The translations under genes were made by a program, and so were the position numbers. Shown piece after piece: positions 20,493-49,401 of a stretch of 64,000 nucleotides of DNA (positions are counted from its first letter, which is position 1; every line of letters starts with the position of its first letter). Source of the stretch: an uncultured Cardiobacteriales bacterium. GTDB taxonomy: Bacteria; Pseudomonadota; Gammaproteobacteria; CAYWWW01. The DNA lies in the NCBI GenBank assembly GCA_964462205.1, contig CAYWWW010000006.1:52717-116716 (forward strand), read 5' to 3'. Below the pieces are notes generated by a model, which had not been told where the DNA came from, did no database searches, and saw only the letters and a list, made by a program, of their open reading frames with translations.

Positions 20493-20969
20493 CTAACGGA
20501 TGCGCGAGCGCTGCCAAGCCAGGCGCTGCCAATAGGCTTCTTGCGCCACGCTCAATGGCACAACCAATAAATTACGCCGGTCAACTTCTTGATGCCAAAA
20601 ACAAAACACGGCATCGGGATGCCAGCGTGTTAAAGCCGCCGCGCCGAGACGCTCTGGCCATTCAATAAAGCATAAAGCGCTGTTTTCAAAGTATTCTTTT
20701 CCGCCAATATCCAGCCATTCTTCCGCTGTCGCCAAGCGGTATAAATCGGCGTGACAATACTGACCATCGGCGTAGCTTTCGACCAGGCTATAACTGGGGC
20801 TAGGTATGGCAGCATTTTCGCCTAAAAGCGTTTTCAACCAAGCTCTTACAAAGGTAGATTTGCCGCTACCCAAAGCGCCGCGCAAAAAAAAGCGCCCCTT
20901 GGGGATGCTCAAGGCGCAGCTTCTGGCCAGCGCTTGCAAGGTGTTTTCATCGAGATTTTTAAGCCACAT
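20493..20969 (-). CDS. tsaE: tRNA threonylcarbamoyladenosine biosynthesis ATPase TsaE
   Basis: P-loop GALGSGKSTFVRAW. 158 aa, typical of YjeE/TsaE. Confidence 0.8.
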   Translation of the reverse strand: MWLKNLDENTLQALARSCALSIPKGRFFLRGALGSGKSTFVRAWLKTLLGENAAIPSPSYSLVESYADGQYCHADLYRLATAEEWLDIGGKEYFENSALCFIEWPERLGAAALTRWHPDAVFCFWHQEVDRRNLLVVPLSVAQEAYWQRLAWQRSRIR

Positions 20970-21136
20970 TTTTTATCCAATTCATGCTAAGCATTAAAGC
21001 CGCAAAGACTTTTTACGATAGTAAACTAAAGCCGCGATAGCAGGCCAGCAGGGATTATTTTTCTTTTGCCAACTTTAAGATAATAAAACTTGCCAAAGCG
21101 ATAAAATTGCGTATGCTTTTACCTTCCTTTCAAAAA

Positions 21137-21209
21137 GGGCGCGTAGCTCAGTTGGTAGAGCATCACCTTGACATGGTGGGGGTCGTTGGTTCGAGTCCAG
21201 TCGCGCCCA
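21137..21209 (+). tRNA. tRNA-Val (anticodon GAC)
   Basis: Cloverleaf with GGGCGCG/CGCGCCC acceptor stem, anticodon loop UUGACAU, and T-loop UUCGAGU. Confidence 0.85.
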
Positions 21210-23036: not shown

Positions 23037-23113
23037 TGGGGTGAATGACGGGGCTCGAACCCGCGGCCACAGGAATCACAATCCTGCGCTCTACCAACTG
23101 AGCTACATCCACC
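23037..23113 (-). tRNA. tRNA-His (anticodon GUG)
   Basis: Reverse complement gives G-1 GUGGAUG ... anticodon loop UUGUGAU ... CAUUCAC C CCA, with CCA encoded. Confidence 0.85.
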
Positions 23114-23175
23114 ATAGATAAATTTTTCGCCGCAAGCCACAACAGTAAATACACAATGCTAAACAGTATGCGTAT

Positions 23176-23249
23176 CGTGCCTGGCAGGACTCGAACCTGC
23201 TACCCTCGGCTTAGAAGGCCGATGCTCTATCCAGATGAGCTACAGACAC
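23176..23249 (-). tRNA. tRNA-Arg (anticodon UCU)
   Basis: Reverse complement gives GUGUCUG acceptor stem, anticodon loop CUUCUAA, and T-loop UUCGAGU. Confidence 0.85.
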
Positions 23250-23338
23250 AGGTGAAGTTTTTGAAAAAATGCAGGATAACTAAAGATAACTAAAGGATTT
23301 TGGGTAAGAATATTAGTGAAAACTTGCATGAAAAATGC

Positions 23339-23412
23339 TCGGGGTAGCAGGATTCGAACCTACGGCCTTCAGTACCCAAAACTGACGCGCTACCAAACTG
23401 CGCTATACCCCG
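23339..23412 (-). tRNA. tRNA-Pro (anticodon UGG)
   Basis: Reverse complement gives CGGGGUA acceptor stem, anticodon loop UUUGGGU, and T-loop UUCGAAU. Confidence 0.85.
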
Positions 23413-34835: not shown

Positions 34836-37061
34836 ATGAAAAAGATCGGCTTTTTATTTTTGCTTAGTTTTGTTTATCTTTTGACTGGCTGTAGCCAAGA
34901 AAACGGTAGTCCTTACACTCCCTTAACCCCAGATACAATGCCAACGGTGAATCTTGGTGCCGATATTGATGGCGGTGGCGGGCTTTATGTACCAAACTTC
35001 TTAAGTTTTGATGAAAACAGTGCTGATCCTGTCGTATATTTTGGACAACAAGAATTTCGTTTTCTCAATAGTCAACATCCACCCTTGTATTTTTACCTTG
35101 ATCTCAACAATGACGAAATCAATGACTTAGAAATTGAAACTCAAAAGATTACCGAACAAATTATCCAAGAAGATATTCGTGGCATCCGCACCCTCCAAGA
35201 AACCAGCTATACAGATATCAATAAGGACAGTGAGAATTTCAACCTTGCTCAAGAAATCATTCAAAGCACTTACGCACAAGATCGCTTGGGCAATGTGCAT
35301 TTTTTAGCCTTTTCACGGCAAGGTATTAGCGATAGTGAACCAACCGTAATAACAAATCCAATACCTTACCCGGTTTATCCTGCCAAAGTGCAAGTTGGCG
35401 AAACATGGTTGACTGCTTTTGCGCCAAACACTTCCTTAGTGCCGGAGAGTGGTTGGCAAGTAACGCTATTAGATGATGATGCTACCGCGCCTATCAGCGG
35501 CGAAGAAAATACTATTCTTCTTCTTTTTCAGTATATTGATGGCGGATTTTATCTTTATCTTAAGCCAGGAATTGGTGTAGTAGAGCAATTGGCACTATGG
35601 ACTGATGAAAATGGAAAAGTGAAACCAATTGTAGGACTTGCCAAGCAAATTCAAAAAGATATTGGCCTTGGCAGCGATTTCATCACTGGCGGCCACAATA
35701 ACCCGCTGGTTGGTGTTTTACAATTACCCATGTTAGTACAGAGTTATCAGGATAAACTTTATTTTAATTATCAATATAGTGAATCCATCTATTTATGCCG
35801 ACTGTTCTTTCCAGCATCAGAATATGGCCGTTGTTATAGCGAAGATGGCACCAATAGCGATTATTTTAGTTTTAGCTTTCTCTTTGATCCACAAAGCAAA
35901 GCATTAACCCTAGCCAATCAAGCCTTGGCATTACCAGCAGAAGATAATTATTTTCAACCAATTTTTGAGATACAACTCAATGGCCAGCAATTTTTTGTCA
36001 ATGCCGAAGCAGGCGACATCCAAGCGCGTTCTTATTATCCCCTAGAACAACCCTATGGCTTTGCTATGCTTAACTTTTATGGCAATCTTTATAATGCCGA
36101 GAGCAAGCAAACTTTTCCTTTTAACACGATTATTGCGAGTCCATTTTTCAACCAACAACAACTGGGTAGTGTTATTTTAGATGCTGATATTGATCGCATT
36201 TTACCTAGACAAAACAAAGACCAAACTATCCGCCTTCATTGGTTAAACCCAACAGGCGACCGCACAGAACAGCTCTTTTGGGGAAACAGCCCAGAAAACA
36301 TCAATAACAGCTTTGAAAATATACAATATTTTTGCTTTAGCGATAGTGGAGCGACAAGCAACTGCGAAGGAACCAACAATCGGGCAGCAACCTTTACCAG
36401 CACCATGACTGGCACCATATATCTGCAATTACGCACCGATAATCCTTTCTTTAATAGTCTTATTTATCAACTATCTATTGAAGAAAATACGCTTAAACAA
36501 CTACCCATTGCGCGTATTACTTCTGTTGAAAACATTATTGAGCCATTAACCTTAACTTTGCCAGAAAGTAACACCATCACTGCTGCCTTTAGTGCTATCC
36601 ACTCCCGTGCGCTAGCGAGAAGCATTGTGGATTATCATTGGACTATCAATGGCGAAGTATTGCCGGAAACTTTCTGGACGATTCGTCAGACTTTTCAAGA
36701 ACCTGGCGACTATACTGTTGGTTTAACCGTCACCGACAGTCTTGGTCAAACCGCAACCACCACCTATCAAGTCCTAGTGAGAAAACAGGGCGAAATTATT
36801 TTTCGTAATATCTCACTCGCACAACAAGTGATTGAATTAGAAATTTATACGCTAAGCGACACCGGCGCACAAACTTTCCTCAAGTCCATTTCACAACGCC
36901 TCGCACATACCGAAGAATGGTTAGTGGAATTGCCTGTTGGCCAGGTCTATGCCTTGCGCTATGCCATACAAGGCACGGCTCCCGATGCTGAAAAAAAGCT
37001 AGAAGAAAAAACCGTCGCCATCTTTGCAGGTTTTACTGAAGTCATCACCATCACACCATAA
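34836..37061 (+). CDS. Large lipoprotein with a PKD domain
   Basis: LTGC lipobox. 741 aa. DYTVGLTVTDSLGQTATTTYQVLV is a PKD-domain signature near the C-terminus. Confidence 0.55.
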   Translation: MKKIGFLFLLSFVYLLTGCSQENGSPYTPLTPDTMPTVNLGADIDGGGGLYVPNFLSFDENSADPVVYFGQQEFRFLNSQHPPLYFYLDLNNDEINDLEIETQKITEQIIQEDIRGIRTLQETSYTDINKDSENFNLAQEIIQSTYAQDRLGNVHFLAFSRQGISDSEPTVITNPIPYPVYPAKVQVGETWLTAFAPNTSLVPESGWQVTLLDDDATAPISGEENTILLLFQYIDGGFYLYLKPGIGVVEQLALWTDENGKVKPIVGLAKQIQKDIGLGSDFITGGHNNPLVGVLQLPMLVQSYQDKLYFNYQYSESIYLCRLFFPASEYGRCYSEDGTNSDYFSFSFLFDPQSKALTLANQALALPAEDNYFQPIFEIQLNGQQFFVNAEAGDIQARSYYPLEQPYGFAMLNFYGNLYNAESKQTFPFNTIIASPFFNQQQLGSVILDADIDRILPRQNKDQTIRLHWLNPTGDRTEQLFWGNSPENINNSFENIQYFCFSDSGATSNCEGTNNRAATFTSTMTGTIYLQLRTDNPFFNSLIYQLSIEENTLKQLPIARITSVENIIEPLTLTLPESNTITAAFSAIHSRALARSIVDYHWTINGEVLPETFWTIRQTFQEPGDYTVGLTVTDSLGQTATTTYQVLVRKQGEIIFRNISLAQQVIELEIYTLSDTGAQTFLKSISQRLAHTEEWLVELPVGQVYALRYAIQGTAPDAEKKLEEKTVAIFAGFTEVITITP

Positions 37062-37090: not shown

Positions 37091-37513
37091 ATGCATTGTT
37101 TTTATCATCCCGATGCCGCTGCGGTGGCGACTTGTAAATCTTGTCAGCGTGGACTTTGCTTCGCTTGCGCAGTATCTCTACCCAACGCCGAACAACCGTT
37201 GGGCATGGCTTGCAAAGACCGTTGTGAAAACGAAGTCAATGAAGTCAACGCCTTGATCCAAAGCAACAAAAAATTAACCAAGGCGGCTCCTGGACAATTC
37301 AAAGCGAATGCCAATGTTTACTACAATCTCGCTTTTGGCAGTATTGCCTTAGCAAGTGTTTTCATTGGTTATGGCAGTTATGAACTAATTGTTTTTGATA
37401 GCTTTGGTTTAAGCACTTTTTTAATCGCTGGCGGCTTAATTTTCCTTTGGTCAGGCTTTGGCTATTGGCAAACTGCACAACGCTTAAAAAAAGCCAATCA
37501 ATCGCATGAATAA
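37091..37513 (+). CDS. B-box-type zinc-finger membrane protein
   Basis: CFYHPDAAAVATCKSCQRGLCFAC cysteine/histidine cluster at the N-terminus, followed by two or three predicted transmembrane helices. Confidence 0.5.
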   Translation: MHCFYHPDAAAVATCKSCQRGLCFACAVSLPNAEQPLGMACKDRCENEVNEVNALIQSNKKLTKAAPGQFKANANVYYNLAFGSIALASVFIGYGSYELIVFDSFGLSTFLIAGGLIFLWSGFGYWQTAQRLKKANQSHE

Positions 37514-37552: not shown

Positions 37553-38692
37553 ATGTCAGAACTACCGGCGCTCGAAAAAATTTTACCCTTGTTGCCGCCC
37601 GAAGAAACGCCTTGGTTGCGTGCCTTGGTAGCGCGTGATTATGGTGAGACTTTAGCGATTTTTAATCCACAAGCCTTTGTTTTACAAACACCTAAAGCGG
37701 CTATTCCCTGGCCAGAACAAGCGCCGGACAAACCCTGGCCAGAAATTTGCTTGTACTTACGCGCCAGTCAGCCGTTGAGCACAGAAGAGCTTGCTTGGTT
37801 AGAAAAATTTAAGCGTTTTTTTGCCACATTAACGCTACATCCCGTTTACTATCCGGGGGAAAAGCTATCCCTTTGGATGCATTGGCAATTAACGATATAT
37901 CTACGCAAAAAAATTTTTCATCACTTGGCGATGCCTTGCCAAATTAAGCCATTGATTGCTTTAGAAAATGCGCAAAGCCTATTGACCACAGCACCAGCAC
38001 AACGCGCCTGGCAACAACAGCAACAGCGCGCTTTAATTTTTTATTGTCAACAATACCGAAAAACAACGGAAAATCAGCAAACTGCCACAAGTCAACTACA
38101 AGCTATCGAACAGGCGAGCCAATTGGCCTTTGATCAGTTATCCAGCCGCTTAATACAGTTACAAAAAAATCAAAGCCCTAAGGAAATACTTTTCACTTGG
38201 CAACAAGATTTAAGCTATCAATCCTTAGCACAAGCCTTAGAAACAATAGCTATTTCTCTTGATTCTGCTTCGATCATAGCTTTAGCCGAACAACATTTAC
38301 AATGGCAAAAACAACCACGCTTTCGCTTGGAACGCTATAAAAAAAGCCGCTTCTCAGCAAAAAATCCTTGGGGAATCCTGCAAGAAATACTAAAACAAGG
38401 CGAGCGATTATTTCAGTCTTTATTATTCAGCACCTTAATTGGCATCATTGCTTGGGCTTTTGGCATTGACCACGGCATCTTGTTGACCTTTATTTTATTA
38501 AGCGCCTTCCTTTTAGGTTGGCGATTTCAGCTTAAAAAAACCATTTCTTATACTTTGATAGGCCGCACAACCTTTTTCAAAGCCTTGAGCGAATCCTGGC
38601 AAGCCTCAACAGCTTTTCAAAAAATTCAAACCCTTGTCCTTTGGGAACAATCATGTCCGCCGATATCCACCACGCGCAACGCCAAGCATTAG
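37553..38692 (+). CDS. Hypothetical Gln-rich protein with a C-terminal membrane anchor
   Basis: 379 aa. Gln-rich helical middle (QQQQQRALIFYCQQYRK). C-terminal hydrophobic helices LLFSTLIGIIAWAFGIDHGILLTFILLSAFLLGW. The 3' end overlaps the start of the downstream GTPase gene. Confidence 0.5.
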   Translation: MSELPALEKILPLLPPEETPWLRALVARDYGETLAIFNPQAFVLQTPKAAIPWPEQAPDKPWPEICLYLRASQPLSTEELAWLEKFKRFFATLTLHPVYYPGEKLSLWMHWQLTIYLRKKIFHHLAMPCQIKPLIALENAQSLLTTAPAQRAWQQQQQRALIFYCQQYRKTTENQQTATSQLQAIEQASQLAFDQLSSRLIQLQKNQSPKEILFTWQQDLSYQSLAQALETIAISLDSASIIALAEQHLQWQKQPRFRLERYKKSRFSAKNPWGILQEILKQGERLFQSLLFSTLIGIIAWAFGIDHGILLTFILLSAFLLGWRFQLKKTISYTLIGRTTFFKALSESWQASTAFQKIQTLVLWEQSCPPISTTRNAKH

Positions 38693-41520
38693 CCTTTGCT
38701 TGTGAGCGTTTATCCTTGTTTGTCAAAACATTAAATTTGCCTGTACAGCATCTGGATGAACAAACCAAGGTGATTCGTGAAGATCGTTTCAGAATTTTAG
38801 TGCTTGGGGAATTTAAGCGTGGAAAATCCACTTTAATCAATGCCTTGCTTCAGGAAGATTTACTTCCACATCAAGCCACCCCGGCCACGCCTTTACCCAT
38901 TCGCTTAGGTTATGGGGAAAAAAGAACTTTATTCTTAAAAAATCAACAGGGTGAACTTGAGGAACAGGCTTTTTCCAGCCTCAGCCAATTGCGCTTAAAA
39001 AGTGATGATCTTGGTCAAGATCGCTTTGGTCTATGGGAGGAAGCCTTGGTCACATTGCCCAATGCTTTTCTTTTACAAGGCATTGAAATTATTGACTCTC
39101 CGGGTTTACATGAGGATGCTTTACGCACCGCGCGGAGTGAAGCGGCTTTATTAAAGGCTGATGCCATCATCATGGTCTTGGATGCCACGCAGTTGCTTTC
39201 CAGTGCTGAACAAGCATTTTTAGAGAAATTACAAGCCTTTGGTAACGAAAATCTCTTTTTTGTCATCAATCGCTATGATGTCTTTTTGCAAAGCATTCCA
39301 ATGCCGCAACAGGCTGAACAACAAGCACAATTAACCGCACGCTTAAGCCATGCTTGGCAACGGCTCTGGCCAAAACAACAACCGCGTATTTTTTATTTAA
39401 GCGCTCTACAAGCCTTAAAAGCTGCACAACGTGGCCAAGAAGATAGCGATTTTGCTATTTTTTTGCTTCACCTTAAAAACTTTTTACAACAAGATCGTAT
39501 CCGCCAACGCAAACAACGCTTACTGGGGTTTTTTCAAGAAGAACAACGAACTTTACAACGTTATTGGCAAAAGCTCGATCAATTAACCCAGTTAAATCTT
39601 CACGAGGCGCTCCAACAAGAAGAAATGTTGCGCCGACAGATCAAACGCTTAGAAGAACAGCAGCAAAGTCTTACCATTTGGTTAAACAAACAACAAATAG
39701 AATGGCGGAAATGGTTAGGACAAGAGAAAAATTATCTTGAGAATCAATGGTTAAAACTTATTCAACAAACTATAGAAACAGCGCTCAGCGAAAAAACCTT
39801 CACTGCGAAAGAATTAAGCGAAAAACCTTTATTTGAACTCTTGCCGCATGGCGAACAAGTCTTAAAAACCGCTGCCGAAACTTGGCAACAAGAACGCTTA
39901 CAACCGCAACTTGAACTCACCCGTCAAGATTTGAAAAATTATTTAGCTAAGGAAATAGCACTTTATAAACAAACATTTACTTGGGATGACGAAGTAGAAA
40001 ATCAAGACTTACCCAGGCAGACAGCGCCCGAAAATTATGCACTGTCTCTCAATGTTGATAGCTTGGCGGCACGGCATTTTCTCTATGGTTTACCGCTGGT
40101 AAGTGGCGCGGGTATTTGGCTTATTGGCTTAAGCAGTTTTAGTTTACCGTTGGCTTTGGTGTTGGCTTTATTTGGTTTTGTGGTAGAACGGCAATTGCGC
40201 TGGCAAAAAATTCAAAAAGAATTAAGTAGTTATCTTAAGCCGGTGCTGGCAAACATCACTGAAAGTTTTATTCATGATCATGAAATTTATGTTTTAGAAA
40301 AATTAAAGCGCTGGCAACTGCCTTTTTCTGAGCTTTTACAAGAAATTCACAACACTACGGCGCGATTACGACAATTATTAAAGACAACCCAAGCGCAACG
40401 TCAGAATAATCAACAGCAAAATCAAGCGGCATTCAAGAAAAAACAACGTGAGGAAAGCGAAGCAAAAGAATTATTTCAAGCGATTTATGATCTTTTAAAC
40501 CAATGGCAACAGGTCAATGTCAGCAAAAAAACCTTATTTAACGGCGAGATTATCGAAGCCTTAGGCCAGCAACTCCCCGGTCTATTGCCGCAATTGCCAG
40601 CAAATTTATATGTTCGCGCTCAAGTGCTTATGCAGCAAATTGCCGATTGGCAAAATGAAAAAGCGCCGGCATTGTGGTGCTGTGGCAGCGCCGGCAGTAG
40701 TAAAAGTAGTATTGTGCAGTTTTTATTGGGTCAAGCCTTTTTGCCGCCGCCGGCTTTGGCAAATTTTGCCGGTCTTCTGCATTTTTCTCCAGGGGAAACT
40801 TGGCAGCTTTATGTTTTTTATCAAGAAAAGTTAAGCCATCAACAAACCATCTCTCCAGATCATGCCTTAGCGGTTTTGTTAGCAGAATTTGCTAAAAATC
40901 ATGATAGCGCTTGTTATCGTTATCAATTTACCGTGCCAGGTCTTACCTATCAACTCTATGATTGTCCAGCTTTTTTTAATGCACAGCATCCGCTCTGGCC
41001 GTATTTTCAAAAGCACAGTTGGCGGGCGCGAATTATCTATAGTTTGGATAGATTGGAACTCGGGCAGTTTTCAGAATTTTATCAACAAGTTTATAAAGAA
41101 AACAATTTATCAGCTTGGTTTTTCTGGTCAAGCACTGCCTTGTCTGCCAATCATCAAGAAACCTTGAAGAAGCACTTGGCTGATCGTTTTCATCCCCAGT
41201 GCATTCAGATGCTGTCGCCAAATTTAGCGCTTTTGAAACAAATACTTAATGCTAAAAGTTATCTTCCTTGGCAAGCGCTGTGGTCAGAAAATACTTTAAT
41301 GCAGTTTTTACTGCCCGGTTGGCAAGCAAAGCATCTTGATTTTTTTTGGCGGTTTTGGTTGCAATGGCGACTGCAAAAGGTCGCCTGTGCAGAGGTTTTA
41401 GAGGCTTGGCGGGGCAAGGTAGCGGATTTTCAACAGGAAGATCAACAGCAGTTGGAAAATAGGAGTTTGCTATTGGCCGCAAATTTGGCACCGTTATTGG
41501 ATAGCGGCCTTGGTCAGTGA
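38653..41520 (+). CDS. Dynamin-like GTPase (bacterial dynamin-like protein) with a membrane paddle and an extra C-terminal domain
   Basis: G1 LVLGEFKRGKSTLINALL, G3 IIDSPGLHE, G4 NRYD. Long coiled-coil stalk. Hydrophobic hairpin LPLVSGAGIWLIGLSSFSLPLALVLALFGFVV. The ORF track begins at a TTG at 38641; the first ATG is at 38653. Confidence 0.75.
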   Translation: MSADIHHAQRQALAFACERLSLFVKTLNLPVQHLDEQTKVIREDRFRILVLGEFKRGKSTLINALLQEDLLPHQATPATPLPIRLGYGEKRTLFLKNQQGELEEQAFSSLSQLRLKSDDLGQDRFGLWEEALVTLPNAFLLQGIEIIDSPGLHEDALRTARSEAALLKADAIIMVLDATQLLSSAEQAFLEKLQAFGNENLFFVINRYDVFLQSIPMPQQAEQQAQLTARLSHAWQRLWPKQQPRIFYLSALQALKAAQRGQEDSDFAIFLLHLKNFLQQDRIRQRKQRLLGFFQEEQRTLQRYWQKLDQLTQLNLHEALQQEEMLRRQIKRLEEQQQSLTIWLNKQQIEWRKWLGQEKNYLENQWLKLIQQTIETALSEKTFTAKELSEKPLFELLPHGEQVLKTAAETWQQERLQPQLELTRQDLKNYLAKEIALYKQTFTWDDEVENQDLPRQTAPENYALSLNVDSLAARHFLYGLPLVSGAGIWLIGLSSFSLPLALVLALFGFVVERQLRWQKIQKELSSYLKPVLANITESFIHDHEIYVLEKLKRWQLPFSELLQEIHNTTARLRQLLKTTQAQRQNNQQQNQAAFKKKQREESEAKELFQAIYDLLNQWQQVNVSKKTLFNGEIIEALGQQLPGLLPQLPANLYVRAQVLMQQIADWQNEKAPALWCCGSAGSSKSSIVQFLLGQAFLPPPALANFAGLLHFSPGETWQLYVFYQEKLSHQQTISPDHALAVLLAEFAKNHDSACYRYQFTVPGLTYQLYDCPAFFNAQHPLWPYFQKHSWRARIIYSLDRLELGQFSEFYQQVYKENNLSAWFFWSSTALSANHQETLKKHLADRFHPQCIQMLSPNLALLKQILNAKSYLPWQALWSENTLMQFLLPGWQAKHLDFFWRFWLQWRLQKVACAEVLEAWRGKVADFQQEDQQQLENRSLLLAANLAPLLDSGLGQ

Positions 41521-41843
41521 GGTTTTTTTGTCGTCATAAGTAGCGTCGCCTAGAGGTACAGGATTTAGGCTAAGGCTTCACAGCCAAGCGCAGCTTTTGG
41601 CATTTTTTTAATTATTTAACAAGTAGTTGACTTGGCAGCGGTCTGTTCGCCTTGGCCGCGTAAAGTTGAGGTTTTGCTTTGATTTACGCTATGTGCAATC
41701 TTTGGCTTTGCCTGCTGTGGCTGGTCAAGCGGACTGTGCAAAAACCCTGCCGAACCCCAAAAAACTGCCTAGCAACTTGCTGTATCCTAAAGTTTATGCT
41801 AGGTTCCAACGTCTTTTTTTCAGCGTAGGATCAAAGCTCTGGC

Positions 41844-49324: not shown

Positions 49325-49401
49325 CGGGATGTAGCGCAGCCTGGTAGCGCACCAGTCTGGGGGACTGGTGGTCGCAGGTTCAAATCCTGTCATCCCGACC
49401 A
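49325..49401 (+). tRNA. tRNA-Pro (anticodon GGG)
   Basis: CGGGAUG acceptor stem, anticodon loop CUGGGGG, T-loop UUCAAAU, and a 3' CCA encoded. Confidence 0.85.

Follow-up and report, generated by a model that had tools for sequence, protein, structure and literature searches.

A solo bacterial dynamin-like protein with a lineage-restricted, P-loop-like C-terminal tail in an uncultured Cardiobacteriales bacterium

What kind of domain is the long C-terminal tail of a dynamin-like protein (DLP) encoded by an uncultured Cardiobacteriales bacterium, and does it amount to a second dynamin head? The 959-aa open reading frame (ORF) in question lies on the forward strand of contig CAYWWW010000006.1 (assembly GCA_964462205.1, positions 52,717 to 116,716), a stretch of 64,000 nucleotides that is called the window below. 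A first-pass annotation of this DNA had proposed that the interval 40560-41520, equivalent to aa 641-959 plus the stop codon, is a degenerate second P-loop GTPase domain produced by internal duplication. The analysis presented here instead favors a canonical bacterial dynamin-like protein (BDLP) that would carry a lineage-restricted accessory domain of ~335 residues with a P-loop-derived core, a reading to which, overall framing included, we assign a probability of about 0.6. Residue numbers refer throughout to the 959-aa form, which begins at a TTG codon. Translation more probably begins at the ATG of codon 5 (38653), which yields a protein of 955 aa, and the same start occurs in an identical database protein of that length (P0001) and in the sole other full-length relative with the tail (P0002; 962 aa, 68% identity, 99% coverage).

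The first ~625 residues are a complete canonical BDLP. A match to Pfam Dynamin_N (PF00350) covers aa 52-211 (E = 3.7e-26), the resulting G domain holds motifs G1 to G4, and it is accompanied by a helical neck and trunk and by a hydrophobic paddle that is 89% identical to that of P0002. All of the residues that are invariant in 60 BDLPs (G56, G61, K62, S63, T83, D152-S-P-G155 and N210) are present, and the motifs quoted in the first-pass annotation, G1, G3 and the membrane hairpin among them, indeed occur in the ORF where it had placed them. The closest solved relative in a sequence search of the PDB is the BDLP of Nostoc (2J68, E = 1.2e-22). An AlphaFold2 model of the full-length protein, based on a 60-sequence multiple sequence alignment (MSA), has a predicted local distance difference test (pLDDT) score of ~90 for aa 1 to ~625, and a Foldseek search with this model places 2J69/2J68 at the top (E = 1.8e-18), followed by IniA, SynDLP, the C. 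jejuni DLPs and mitofusins. The LeoA and LeoBC models of PADLOC also match the core. Across the 80 best BDLP loci from 185,579 GTDB species representatives, the match of the relatives to the query ends at about residue 623, and thus the BDLP ends at approximately aa 620-625 and the remainder is an addition.

This addition is not an accident of assembly. The same continuous ORF was found in the NCBI assembly and in a JGI metagenome (contig L001, 19 kb), and an uninterrupted frame in two independent assemblies rules out an assembly artefact or a frameshift that fused two genes. The tail is a sequence orphan with two known carriers, the protein described here and P0002. A HMMER profile search of 1.84 billion protein representatives with the two-sequence tail alignment returned only its own cluster, and DNA-level scans of GTDB genomes, JGI metagenomes (in two scans) and viral contigs found no relatives of the tail. 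A word-indexed protein search with the 359-aa tail alone also gave no match, but this negative cannot be trusted because the identical P0001 was present in the same database and was missed.

Despite this narrow distribution, aa 671-800 of the tail are kept by purifying selection as strong as that acting on the catalytic G domain. The ratio of nonsynonymous to synonymous divergence (dN/dS; Nei-Gojobori, with dS near saturation) is 0.15 for aa 671-800, which equals the G-domain value, and 0.24 for aa 801-959. Identity to P0002 amounts to 83% in the G domain, falls to 40% in the linker that joins core and tail (aa 621-670) and rises again to 75-85% at aa 680-729 and 85-95% at aa 760-799, such that conservation within the tail is highest in precisely the two motif blocks. 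The loop and beta-hairpin at aa 698-745 likewise show 75-85% identity. The invariant motifs contain synonymous differences between the two orthologues. A dN/dS as low as that of a catalytic G domain identifies the tail as a functional, selected domain and not as a decaying relic.

It is likely that this domain is P-loop-derived. The relaxed pattern G-x4-[GS]-K-[ST] appears in 0.5% of shuffled tails and the canonical G-x4-GK[ST] in 0.18%. Measured by hhalign against a 100-sequence BDLP G-domain profile from which the protein itself was excluded, the P-loop block (aa 660-700) scores 29.5 compared to 9.8 ± 2.0 for column shuffles (z = 9.8), and when the alignment is anchored on the Walker A block, aa 701-745 add ~9 units (39.2 versus 30.0 ± 1.2, reached in 0/200 shuffles). 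The scores of the tail on the D1-type DLP G profile (31.5-39.2) fall within or near the range of genuine P-loop nucleoside triphosphatase (NTPase) controls (26.6-36.8). Together with the conservation peaks on both motif blocks, these values uphold the first-pass annotation insofar as it recognized a conserved P-loop-like block in the C-terminal part of the protein.

The comparison with P0002 clarifies the state of the motif. At the site aligned to GSAGSSKS, P0002 carries the canonical Walker A sequence GSAGSGKT, the codons differing by GGC to AGT and ACC to AGT from P0002 to this copy, and the missing Gly is therefore peculiar to this copy; the earlier remark that the block lacks the Gly before the Lys holds for the window and fails for the orthologue. 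The Walker A sequence, canonical in P0002 and a one-residue variant here, lies in a strand-loop-helix context, where the strand and helix are taken from low-confidence models. Further downstream, YQLYD774 is invariant and lies 86 residues past K688, while the corresponding distance from K62 to D152 in the true G domain is 90. The order of elements in the weak models (alpha1, two strands, a helix, two strands ending at D774, a helix, a strand and a helix) would be compatible with a BDLP-type G domain and with other P-loop folds alike.

Several points weigh against a P-loop-derived accessory domain. Among Pfam, NCBIfam and PADLOC, no curated family reaches its threshold for the tail, and all of the sequence signal falls within ~85 residues (aa 660-745). 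The candidate Walker B is recognized by its hhhhD pattern (h, hydrophobic) and its spacing, with neither a supporting acidic residue nor a Gly, and the Walker A of this copy is deviant, a Ser replacing the near-invariant Gly. The structure prediction that the first-pass annotation had suggested as a check gave an AlphaFold2 model of low confidence (pLDDT 40 for the tail alone with a 2-sequence MSA and <50 in the full-length model), and a Foldseek search with this tail model found no match better than E = 0.47. There are two sequences in existence, and their conservation cannot separate structural from catalytic constraint. Finally, the position of the tail beside the G domain and its putative regulatory role are drawn by analogy from BDLP topology.

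Some of the same observations would fit a new type of domain with a fold other than that of P-loop NTPases, in which the Walker-A-like string is convergent or incidental. AlphaFold2 is least confident in just the region of the P-loop (pLDDT 24-31), the tail as a whole is a sequence orphan, the motif in this copy is non-canonical and nothing past aa 745 resembles an NTPase. Such a coincidence nevertheless appears quite improbable, as the canonical motif in P0002 sits in the proper strand and helix context within the most conserved block, its chance probability is 0.2-0.5%, genuine P-loop proteins score equally in the profile comparisons and a conserved hhhhD occurs at the proper spacing.

If the core of the tail is P-loop-derived, the next question is whether it is a dynamin-type G domain, either duplicated internally or left over from a fused second DLP. 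This we regard as rather unlikely. The order and spacing of the motifs (86 versus 90 residues from Lys to Asp) are like those of the true G domain, and the best ungapped windows are co-linear (G1 at offset 626, p ~0.015; G4-G5 at offset 638, p ~0.03), but the tail does not resemble the G domain of its own protein significantly, nor any more than it resembles unrelated P-loop proteins. BLAST of the tail with the N-terminal part of the protein aligns the two P-loops at E = 0.13 (search space of 359 x 480 residues), and hhalign returns probabilities of 8.6% for aa 660-905 and 14.7% for aa 660-745. By BLASTP and hhalign alike, aa 640-959 show no significant similarity to aa 30-300, and when the tail block is compared with proteins of the same window, a TsaE-like ATPase (26.3) scores as high as the own G domain (25.1), followed by HslU (23.8). 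The self-alignment thus leaves the proposed internal duplication without the internal similarity it would require.

Profile comparisons point in the same direction. The TsaE-like ATPase scores 36.8 (probability 85%) on the D1-type G profile and 39.8 on the upstream-type DLP profile, the HslU-like protein 27.5 and 31.3, and EF-G (taken from L001) 26.6 and 52.0, respectively. The tail itself reaches 31.5-35.6 on the D1-type profile as single sequences and 39.2 as a pair, and 45.7 on the upstream-type profile, so that controls score as high or higher on DLP G profiles. An hhalign match of the tail to the BDLP G profile (88.6%, E = 2.7e-6) was considered as a sign of dynamin ancestry and was rejected because unrelated P-loop controls equal it. 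Nor does the tail clearly favor one of the D1-type (36.1), D2-type (37.3) and upstream-type (45.7; EF-G 52.0) profiles, and a special kinship with the D2-type heads of two-headed DLPs, represented by a profile of the second half of the 1510-aa protein P0003 and its relatives, was rejected for lack of a clear difference. An origin of the tail as a copy of the stalk or of the partner was likewise rejected, as no similarity was found. That a TsaE-like control matches dynamin G profiles as well as the tail does is a caution on hhalign probabilities for P-loop blocks.

The signal is also restricted in extent. Without the P-loop block, aa 698-905 score 11.4, below the shuffle mean of 13.6, and the anchored block gains nothing from an extension by aa 746-835 or aa 746-905 in local or global mode. 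At low stringency, hhalign yields a co-linear alignment of 226 columns that places DCPA under DSPG, the Pro of D-x-P being kept, and the order of secondary structure in the low-confidence models mirrors the G domain; the alignment was rejected, since nothing beyond aa 745 exceeds the shuffles. With the signal gone in the absence of the P-loop block and past aa 745, the parallel between YQLYDCPAFF and the true G3, which the first-pass annotation had drawn, is without statistical support.

Family models and individual motifs offer a further means of discrimination. Dynamin_N identifies the true P-loop block from 46 aa (9e-6), but it has no match to the tail or to its P-loop block at E <= 10, and a custom hidden Markov model (HMM) of the BDLP G domain assigns the tail 3.8 bits in this copy and -0.6 bits in P0002. 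The G1 position reads GSAGSSKS here, with Ser for Gly, and GSAGSGKT in P0002. The G2 Thr (T83 in BDLPs) is missing from both orthologues, with Phe709 of ALANFAG in the aligned position and no conserved Thr 19-23 residues past the Lys. Both also lack the G3 DxxG (DCPA, with Ala for Gly) and the G4 N/TKxD, for which the candidate strand is WFFWSST here and WTWWSSE in P0002. The closest non-orthologous relative, P0003, is truly two-headed with a second G1 (FGGFSSGKSSLINALLG), which lends the dynamin ancestry some context. On sequence grounds, however, the resemblance noticed earlier is generic P-loop likeness, by which neither dynamin-type identity nor internal duplication is demonstrated. From the degenerate second P-loop GTPase domain of the first-pass annotation, what survives is the conserved P-loop-like core; the dynamin type is not supported, given the equal controls and the absence of a Dynamin_N match, and the degeneracy applies to this copy only.

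The family matches of the tail raise the alternative of a non-GTPase P-loop ATPase, STAND/NACHT-like or of another ASCE or kinase type, comprising a nucleotide-binding domain (NBD) of ~160 aa and a helical domain. The sole curated-family match of the tail, in both orthologues, is Pfam NPHP3_N (PF24883), the P-loop N-terminus of NACHT-type STAND proteins, at a sub-threshold E of 0.0017-0.017 (15-19 bits versus a gathering score of 24.8; profile positions 10-43). The likeness consists of a block of helix, strand, Walker A and helix; presumably, the arrangement helix-W-x9-hhW-x-x-G-x-A-G-x-GK[ST] is typical of NPHP3_N, which we take as a lead only. The P-loop block of P0002 also touches AAA_33, the PDB sequence matches of the tail are the P-loops of ABC-transporter NBDs (E = 0.04), and ~160 aa of alpha/beta structure followed by ~125 aa of helices in the low-confidence models would fit an NBD with a helical domain. 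These matches stay below the gathering score, though, and the NPHP3_N match sits wholly in the 32-residue Walker A block, does not extend and survives shuffling of the remaining sequence. The candidate Walker B Asp is not followed by the acidic residue needed by ASCE/STAND ATPases (DCPAFF, with no Walker B D-D/E), no NACHT, NB-ARC or AAA model matches the rest of the tail and no downstream NACHT elements were found in it. An ATPase of this kind is therefore unlikely.

The genomic setting of the gene sets it apart from its relatives. A tandem second DLP on the same strand occurs at 73 of the 80 closest GTDB loci (L002-L081), and in 53 loci it precedes the closest homologue, often overlapping it and with a median of 26 nt between the two genes. 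According to the literature, bacterial DLPs are for the most part encoded by neighboring genes in pairs, and a regulatory role is possible for the second member (PMC6162298). No second DLP is present in the 64-kb window or in the 19-kb L001, and the lineage thus combines a solo DLP, the tail and a non-DLP partner in the slot usually taken by the partner DLP. This 379-aa partner is co-conserved (67% identity, same position in L001), while the other neighbors differ. It has no family match in Pfam, NCBIfam or PADLOC and no P-loop, and its middle part is helical and rich in Q, while a double hydrophobic segment or hairpin lies in its C-terminal part (aa ~286-327). Its residues 64-102 (EICLYLRASQPLSTEELAWLEKFKRFF...) align to beta4-alpha3-beta5 of the DLP G domain (aa 175-218) with an hhalign score of 32.4 versus 16.7 ± 2.7 for shuffles (0/200; probability 10%), and broad DLP profiles weakly align the same region (E = 0.06-0.1). 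The partner may be a decayed partner DLP. The features of the locus are collected in Table 1.

Table 1. Coordinates of the DLP gene, its parts and associated features in the window
Feature	Coordinates	Strand	Residues	Remarks
Whole ORF	38641..41520	+	959 aa from TTG codon	BDLP core plus C-terminal extension
Complete BDLP core	38641..40515	+	aa 1 to ~625	N-terminal helix, G domain, stalk, paddle, two long return helices
True G1/P-loop ILVLGEFKRGKSTLINALL	38794..38850	+	aa 52-70	GEFKRGKS
True G3 IIDSPGLH	39088..39111	+	aa 150-157	DSPG
G4 motif NRYD	39268-39279	+	aa 210-213	
Hydrophobic membrane hairpin (paddle)	40078..40185	+	aa 480-515	Kyte-Doolittle scan aa 489-517
Linker, core to tail	40501..40650	+	aa 621-670	Poorly conserved; proportion of synonymous differences (pS) 0.92, of nonsynonymous differences (pN) 0.44
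Walker-A-like block ALWCCGSAGSSKSSIVQFLLG	40669..40731	+	aa 677-697	GSAGSSKS here, GSAGSGKT in P0002
Loop and beta-hairpin after P-loop helix, LPPPALANFAGLLHFSPGETWQLYVF...	40732..40875	+	aa 698-745	
Best-conserved tail block	40918..41040	+	aa 760-800	Includes YQLYDCPAFF; 85-95% identity to P0002
YQLYDCPAFF	40948-40977	+	aa 770-779	Hydrophobic strand plus Asp774; candidate Walker B/G3 position
Distal tail	41041..41517	+	aa 801-959	Trp/Phe-rich, less conserved (30-60% identity); mostly helical in low-confidence models
Upstream partner gene	37553..38692	+	379 aa	Overlaps DLP start; counterpart at L001 8904-10040
Terminator-like hairpin and T-run	41583..41601	+		63 nt after DLP stop; likely end of two-gene unit; consensus match, site number <= shuffle expectation
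TsaE-like ATPase	20496-20972	-		GALGSGKST; control in profile comparisons

Further features surround this two-gene unit. Between the DLP stop and thrS there is an untranslated stretch of 320 nt (41521-41843), followed by thrS-infC-rpmI-rplT, and it contains a second terminator-like hairpin (41649-41672). No Rfam family reaches the gathering threshold in this stretch, which could hold a thrS leader or regulatory element. Just upstream of the unit, 37091-37513 (+) encodes a protein of 140 aa that has hydrophobic segments toward its C-terminus and a Cys-rich N-terminal motif resembling a B-box zinc finger (Pfam zf-B_box, sub-threshold at E = 0.015); it is absent from the L001 locus. It is preceded by a predicted lipoprotein of 741 aa (34836-37061, +) with a lipobox-like N-terminus and a PKD domain near the C-terminus. 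Of the five tRNA genes in the window, three form a cluster at 23040-23412 (-) and the others lie at 21137-21209 (+) and 49325-49398 (+).

How might a solo BDLP make use of such a tail? In the proposed arrangement, the accessory domain would be appended to the BDLP after the variable linker, and aa ~660-800 would be built like a P-loop NTPase core, in the order helix, beta-strand, Walker A, helix, loop, beta-hairpin, helix and beta-strands leading to the conserved Asp. The core could belong to the TRAFAC GTPases, to the STAND/ASCE ATPases or to another class, alternatives between which the sequence leaves room. Low and Löwe (2006) reportedly described the chain of the Nostoc BDLP as returning from the paddle to the neck. 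The AlphaFold2 model of the protein has return helices from the paddle at aa 517-588 and aa 592-651, and with the chain returning in this manner via the trunk and neck (helices 517-651 of the model), the C-terminus would come to lie beside the G domain and the tail would emerge next to the catalytic head.

From this position the tail would most likely act as a nucleotide-binding regulatory or assembly head, one that has possibly degenerated in this copy to a domain derived from a nucleotide site. Such a head could modulate the dimerization or oligomerization of the G domain, or couple the DLP to the 379-aa partner with its membrane hairpin, and would thereby take the functional place of the second DLP that the lineage lacks. 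Efficient canonical GTP hydrolysis by the tail is made unlikely in this copy by the deviant Walker A and the DCPA sequence, and the intact Walker A of P0002 speaks for nucleotide binding as a past or present part of the tail's function. A more specific history may also be imagined, in which a former DLP pair was rewired: the upstream partner DLP would have decayed to the 379-aa hairpin protein without a G domain, and the survivor would have gained a partly eroded nucleotide-binding head in cis. We consider this sequence of events improbable. Should it prove true, the protein would be a 'one-and-a-half-headed' dynamin, in which a pseudo-head replaces DLP2 in gating G-domain dimerization and membrane tethering.

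Bacterial DLPs usually work as hetero-pairs or as two-headed fusions, and the reason for requiring a second head is an open question (PMC6162298). If the preferred reading of a P-loop-derived accessory head is correct, a solo BDLP joined to an unrelated or eroded nucleotide-binding module would be a compact natural experiment on whether the contribution of a second head lies in nucleotide sensing or in mere scaffolding, and the two orthologues, which differ at the critical glycine of Walker A, would provide a built-in comparison. The practical weight of the finding is limited by the two sequences, the putative fold and a dynamin-duplication idea that was not borne out.

Among known systems, the BDLP of Nostoc punctiforme (PDB 2J68/2J69) is the nearest counterpart of aa 1 to ~625 in sequence and in predicted structure, over ~700 aligned columns that include the G domain, the neck and trunk helices, the hydrophobic paddle and the return helices. 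Typical BDLPs end ~90-110 residues past the paddle, at 650-700 aa, whereas this protein runs ~335 residues further, and the P-loop-like tail is absent from every other BDLP found, with the exception of P0002. The tandem pairs (C. jejuni DLP1/DLP2, IniA/IniC and LeoA/LeoBC) are alike in that an operon encodes a membrane-binding DLP together with a second component; unlike in these pairs, the upstream slot is here occupied by the 379-aa protein without a P-loop.

The first-pass annotation had likened the protein to two-headed DLPs such as DynA of Bacillus subtilis, and the nearest example at hand is the metagenomic P0003, the first half of which comes closest to the BDLP core among sequences other than orthologues (31% identity, E = 8e-41) and the second half of which has its own G1 (GGFSSGKS) and a second G3 (DTPG). 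P0003 is a genuine two-headed DLP outside the Firmicutes-type DynA annotation. DynA and P0003 share with this protein a dynamin G domain and a second Walker-A module past the first paddle. In both, however, the second half is a full DLP that is recognized by Dynamin_N and has a stalk and canonical G1 and G3, while the tail here spans ~335 aa without a Dynamin_N match, DxxG, G4, stalk or paddle. With a single Dynamin_N stretch, one G domain by HMM and no stalk similarity in the tail, the likeness to DynA does not extend to a second complete DLP module.

Conceptually, the tail resembles the pseudoGTPases (p190RhoGAP pG1/pG2, septins and AAGAB) as a putative nucleotide-site-derived domain with eroded G motifs. 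PseudoGTPase domains are reported to be kept for protein-protein interaction or regulation (PMC5593906, PMC10731463, PMC12490416). Their folds have been proven by crystal structures; the fold of the tail is putative, the Walker A of P0002 is intact and a GTPase ancestry is not demonstrated. In the literature that could be searched, no paper was found that connects DLPs of bacteria to pseudo-GTPase domains. DLPs with two heads have been described before, as have pseudoGTPases, and what is new here is a BDLP that carries an orphan, P-loop-like accessory tail.

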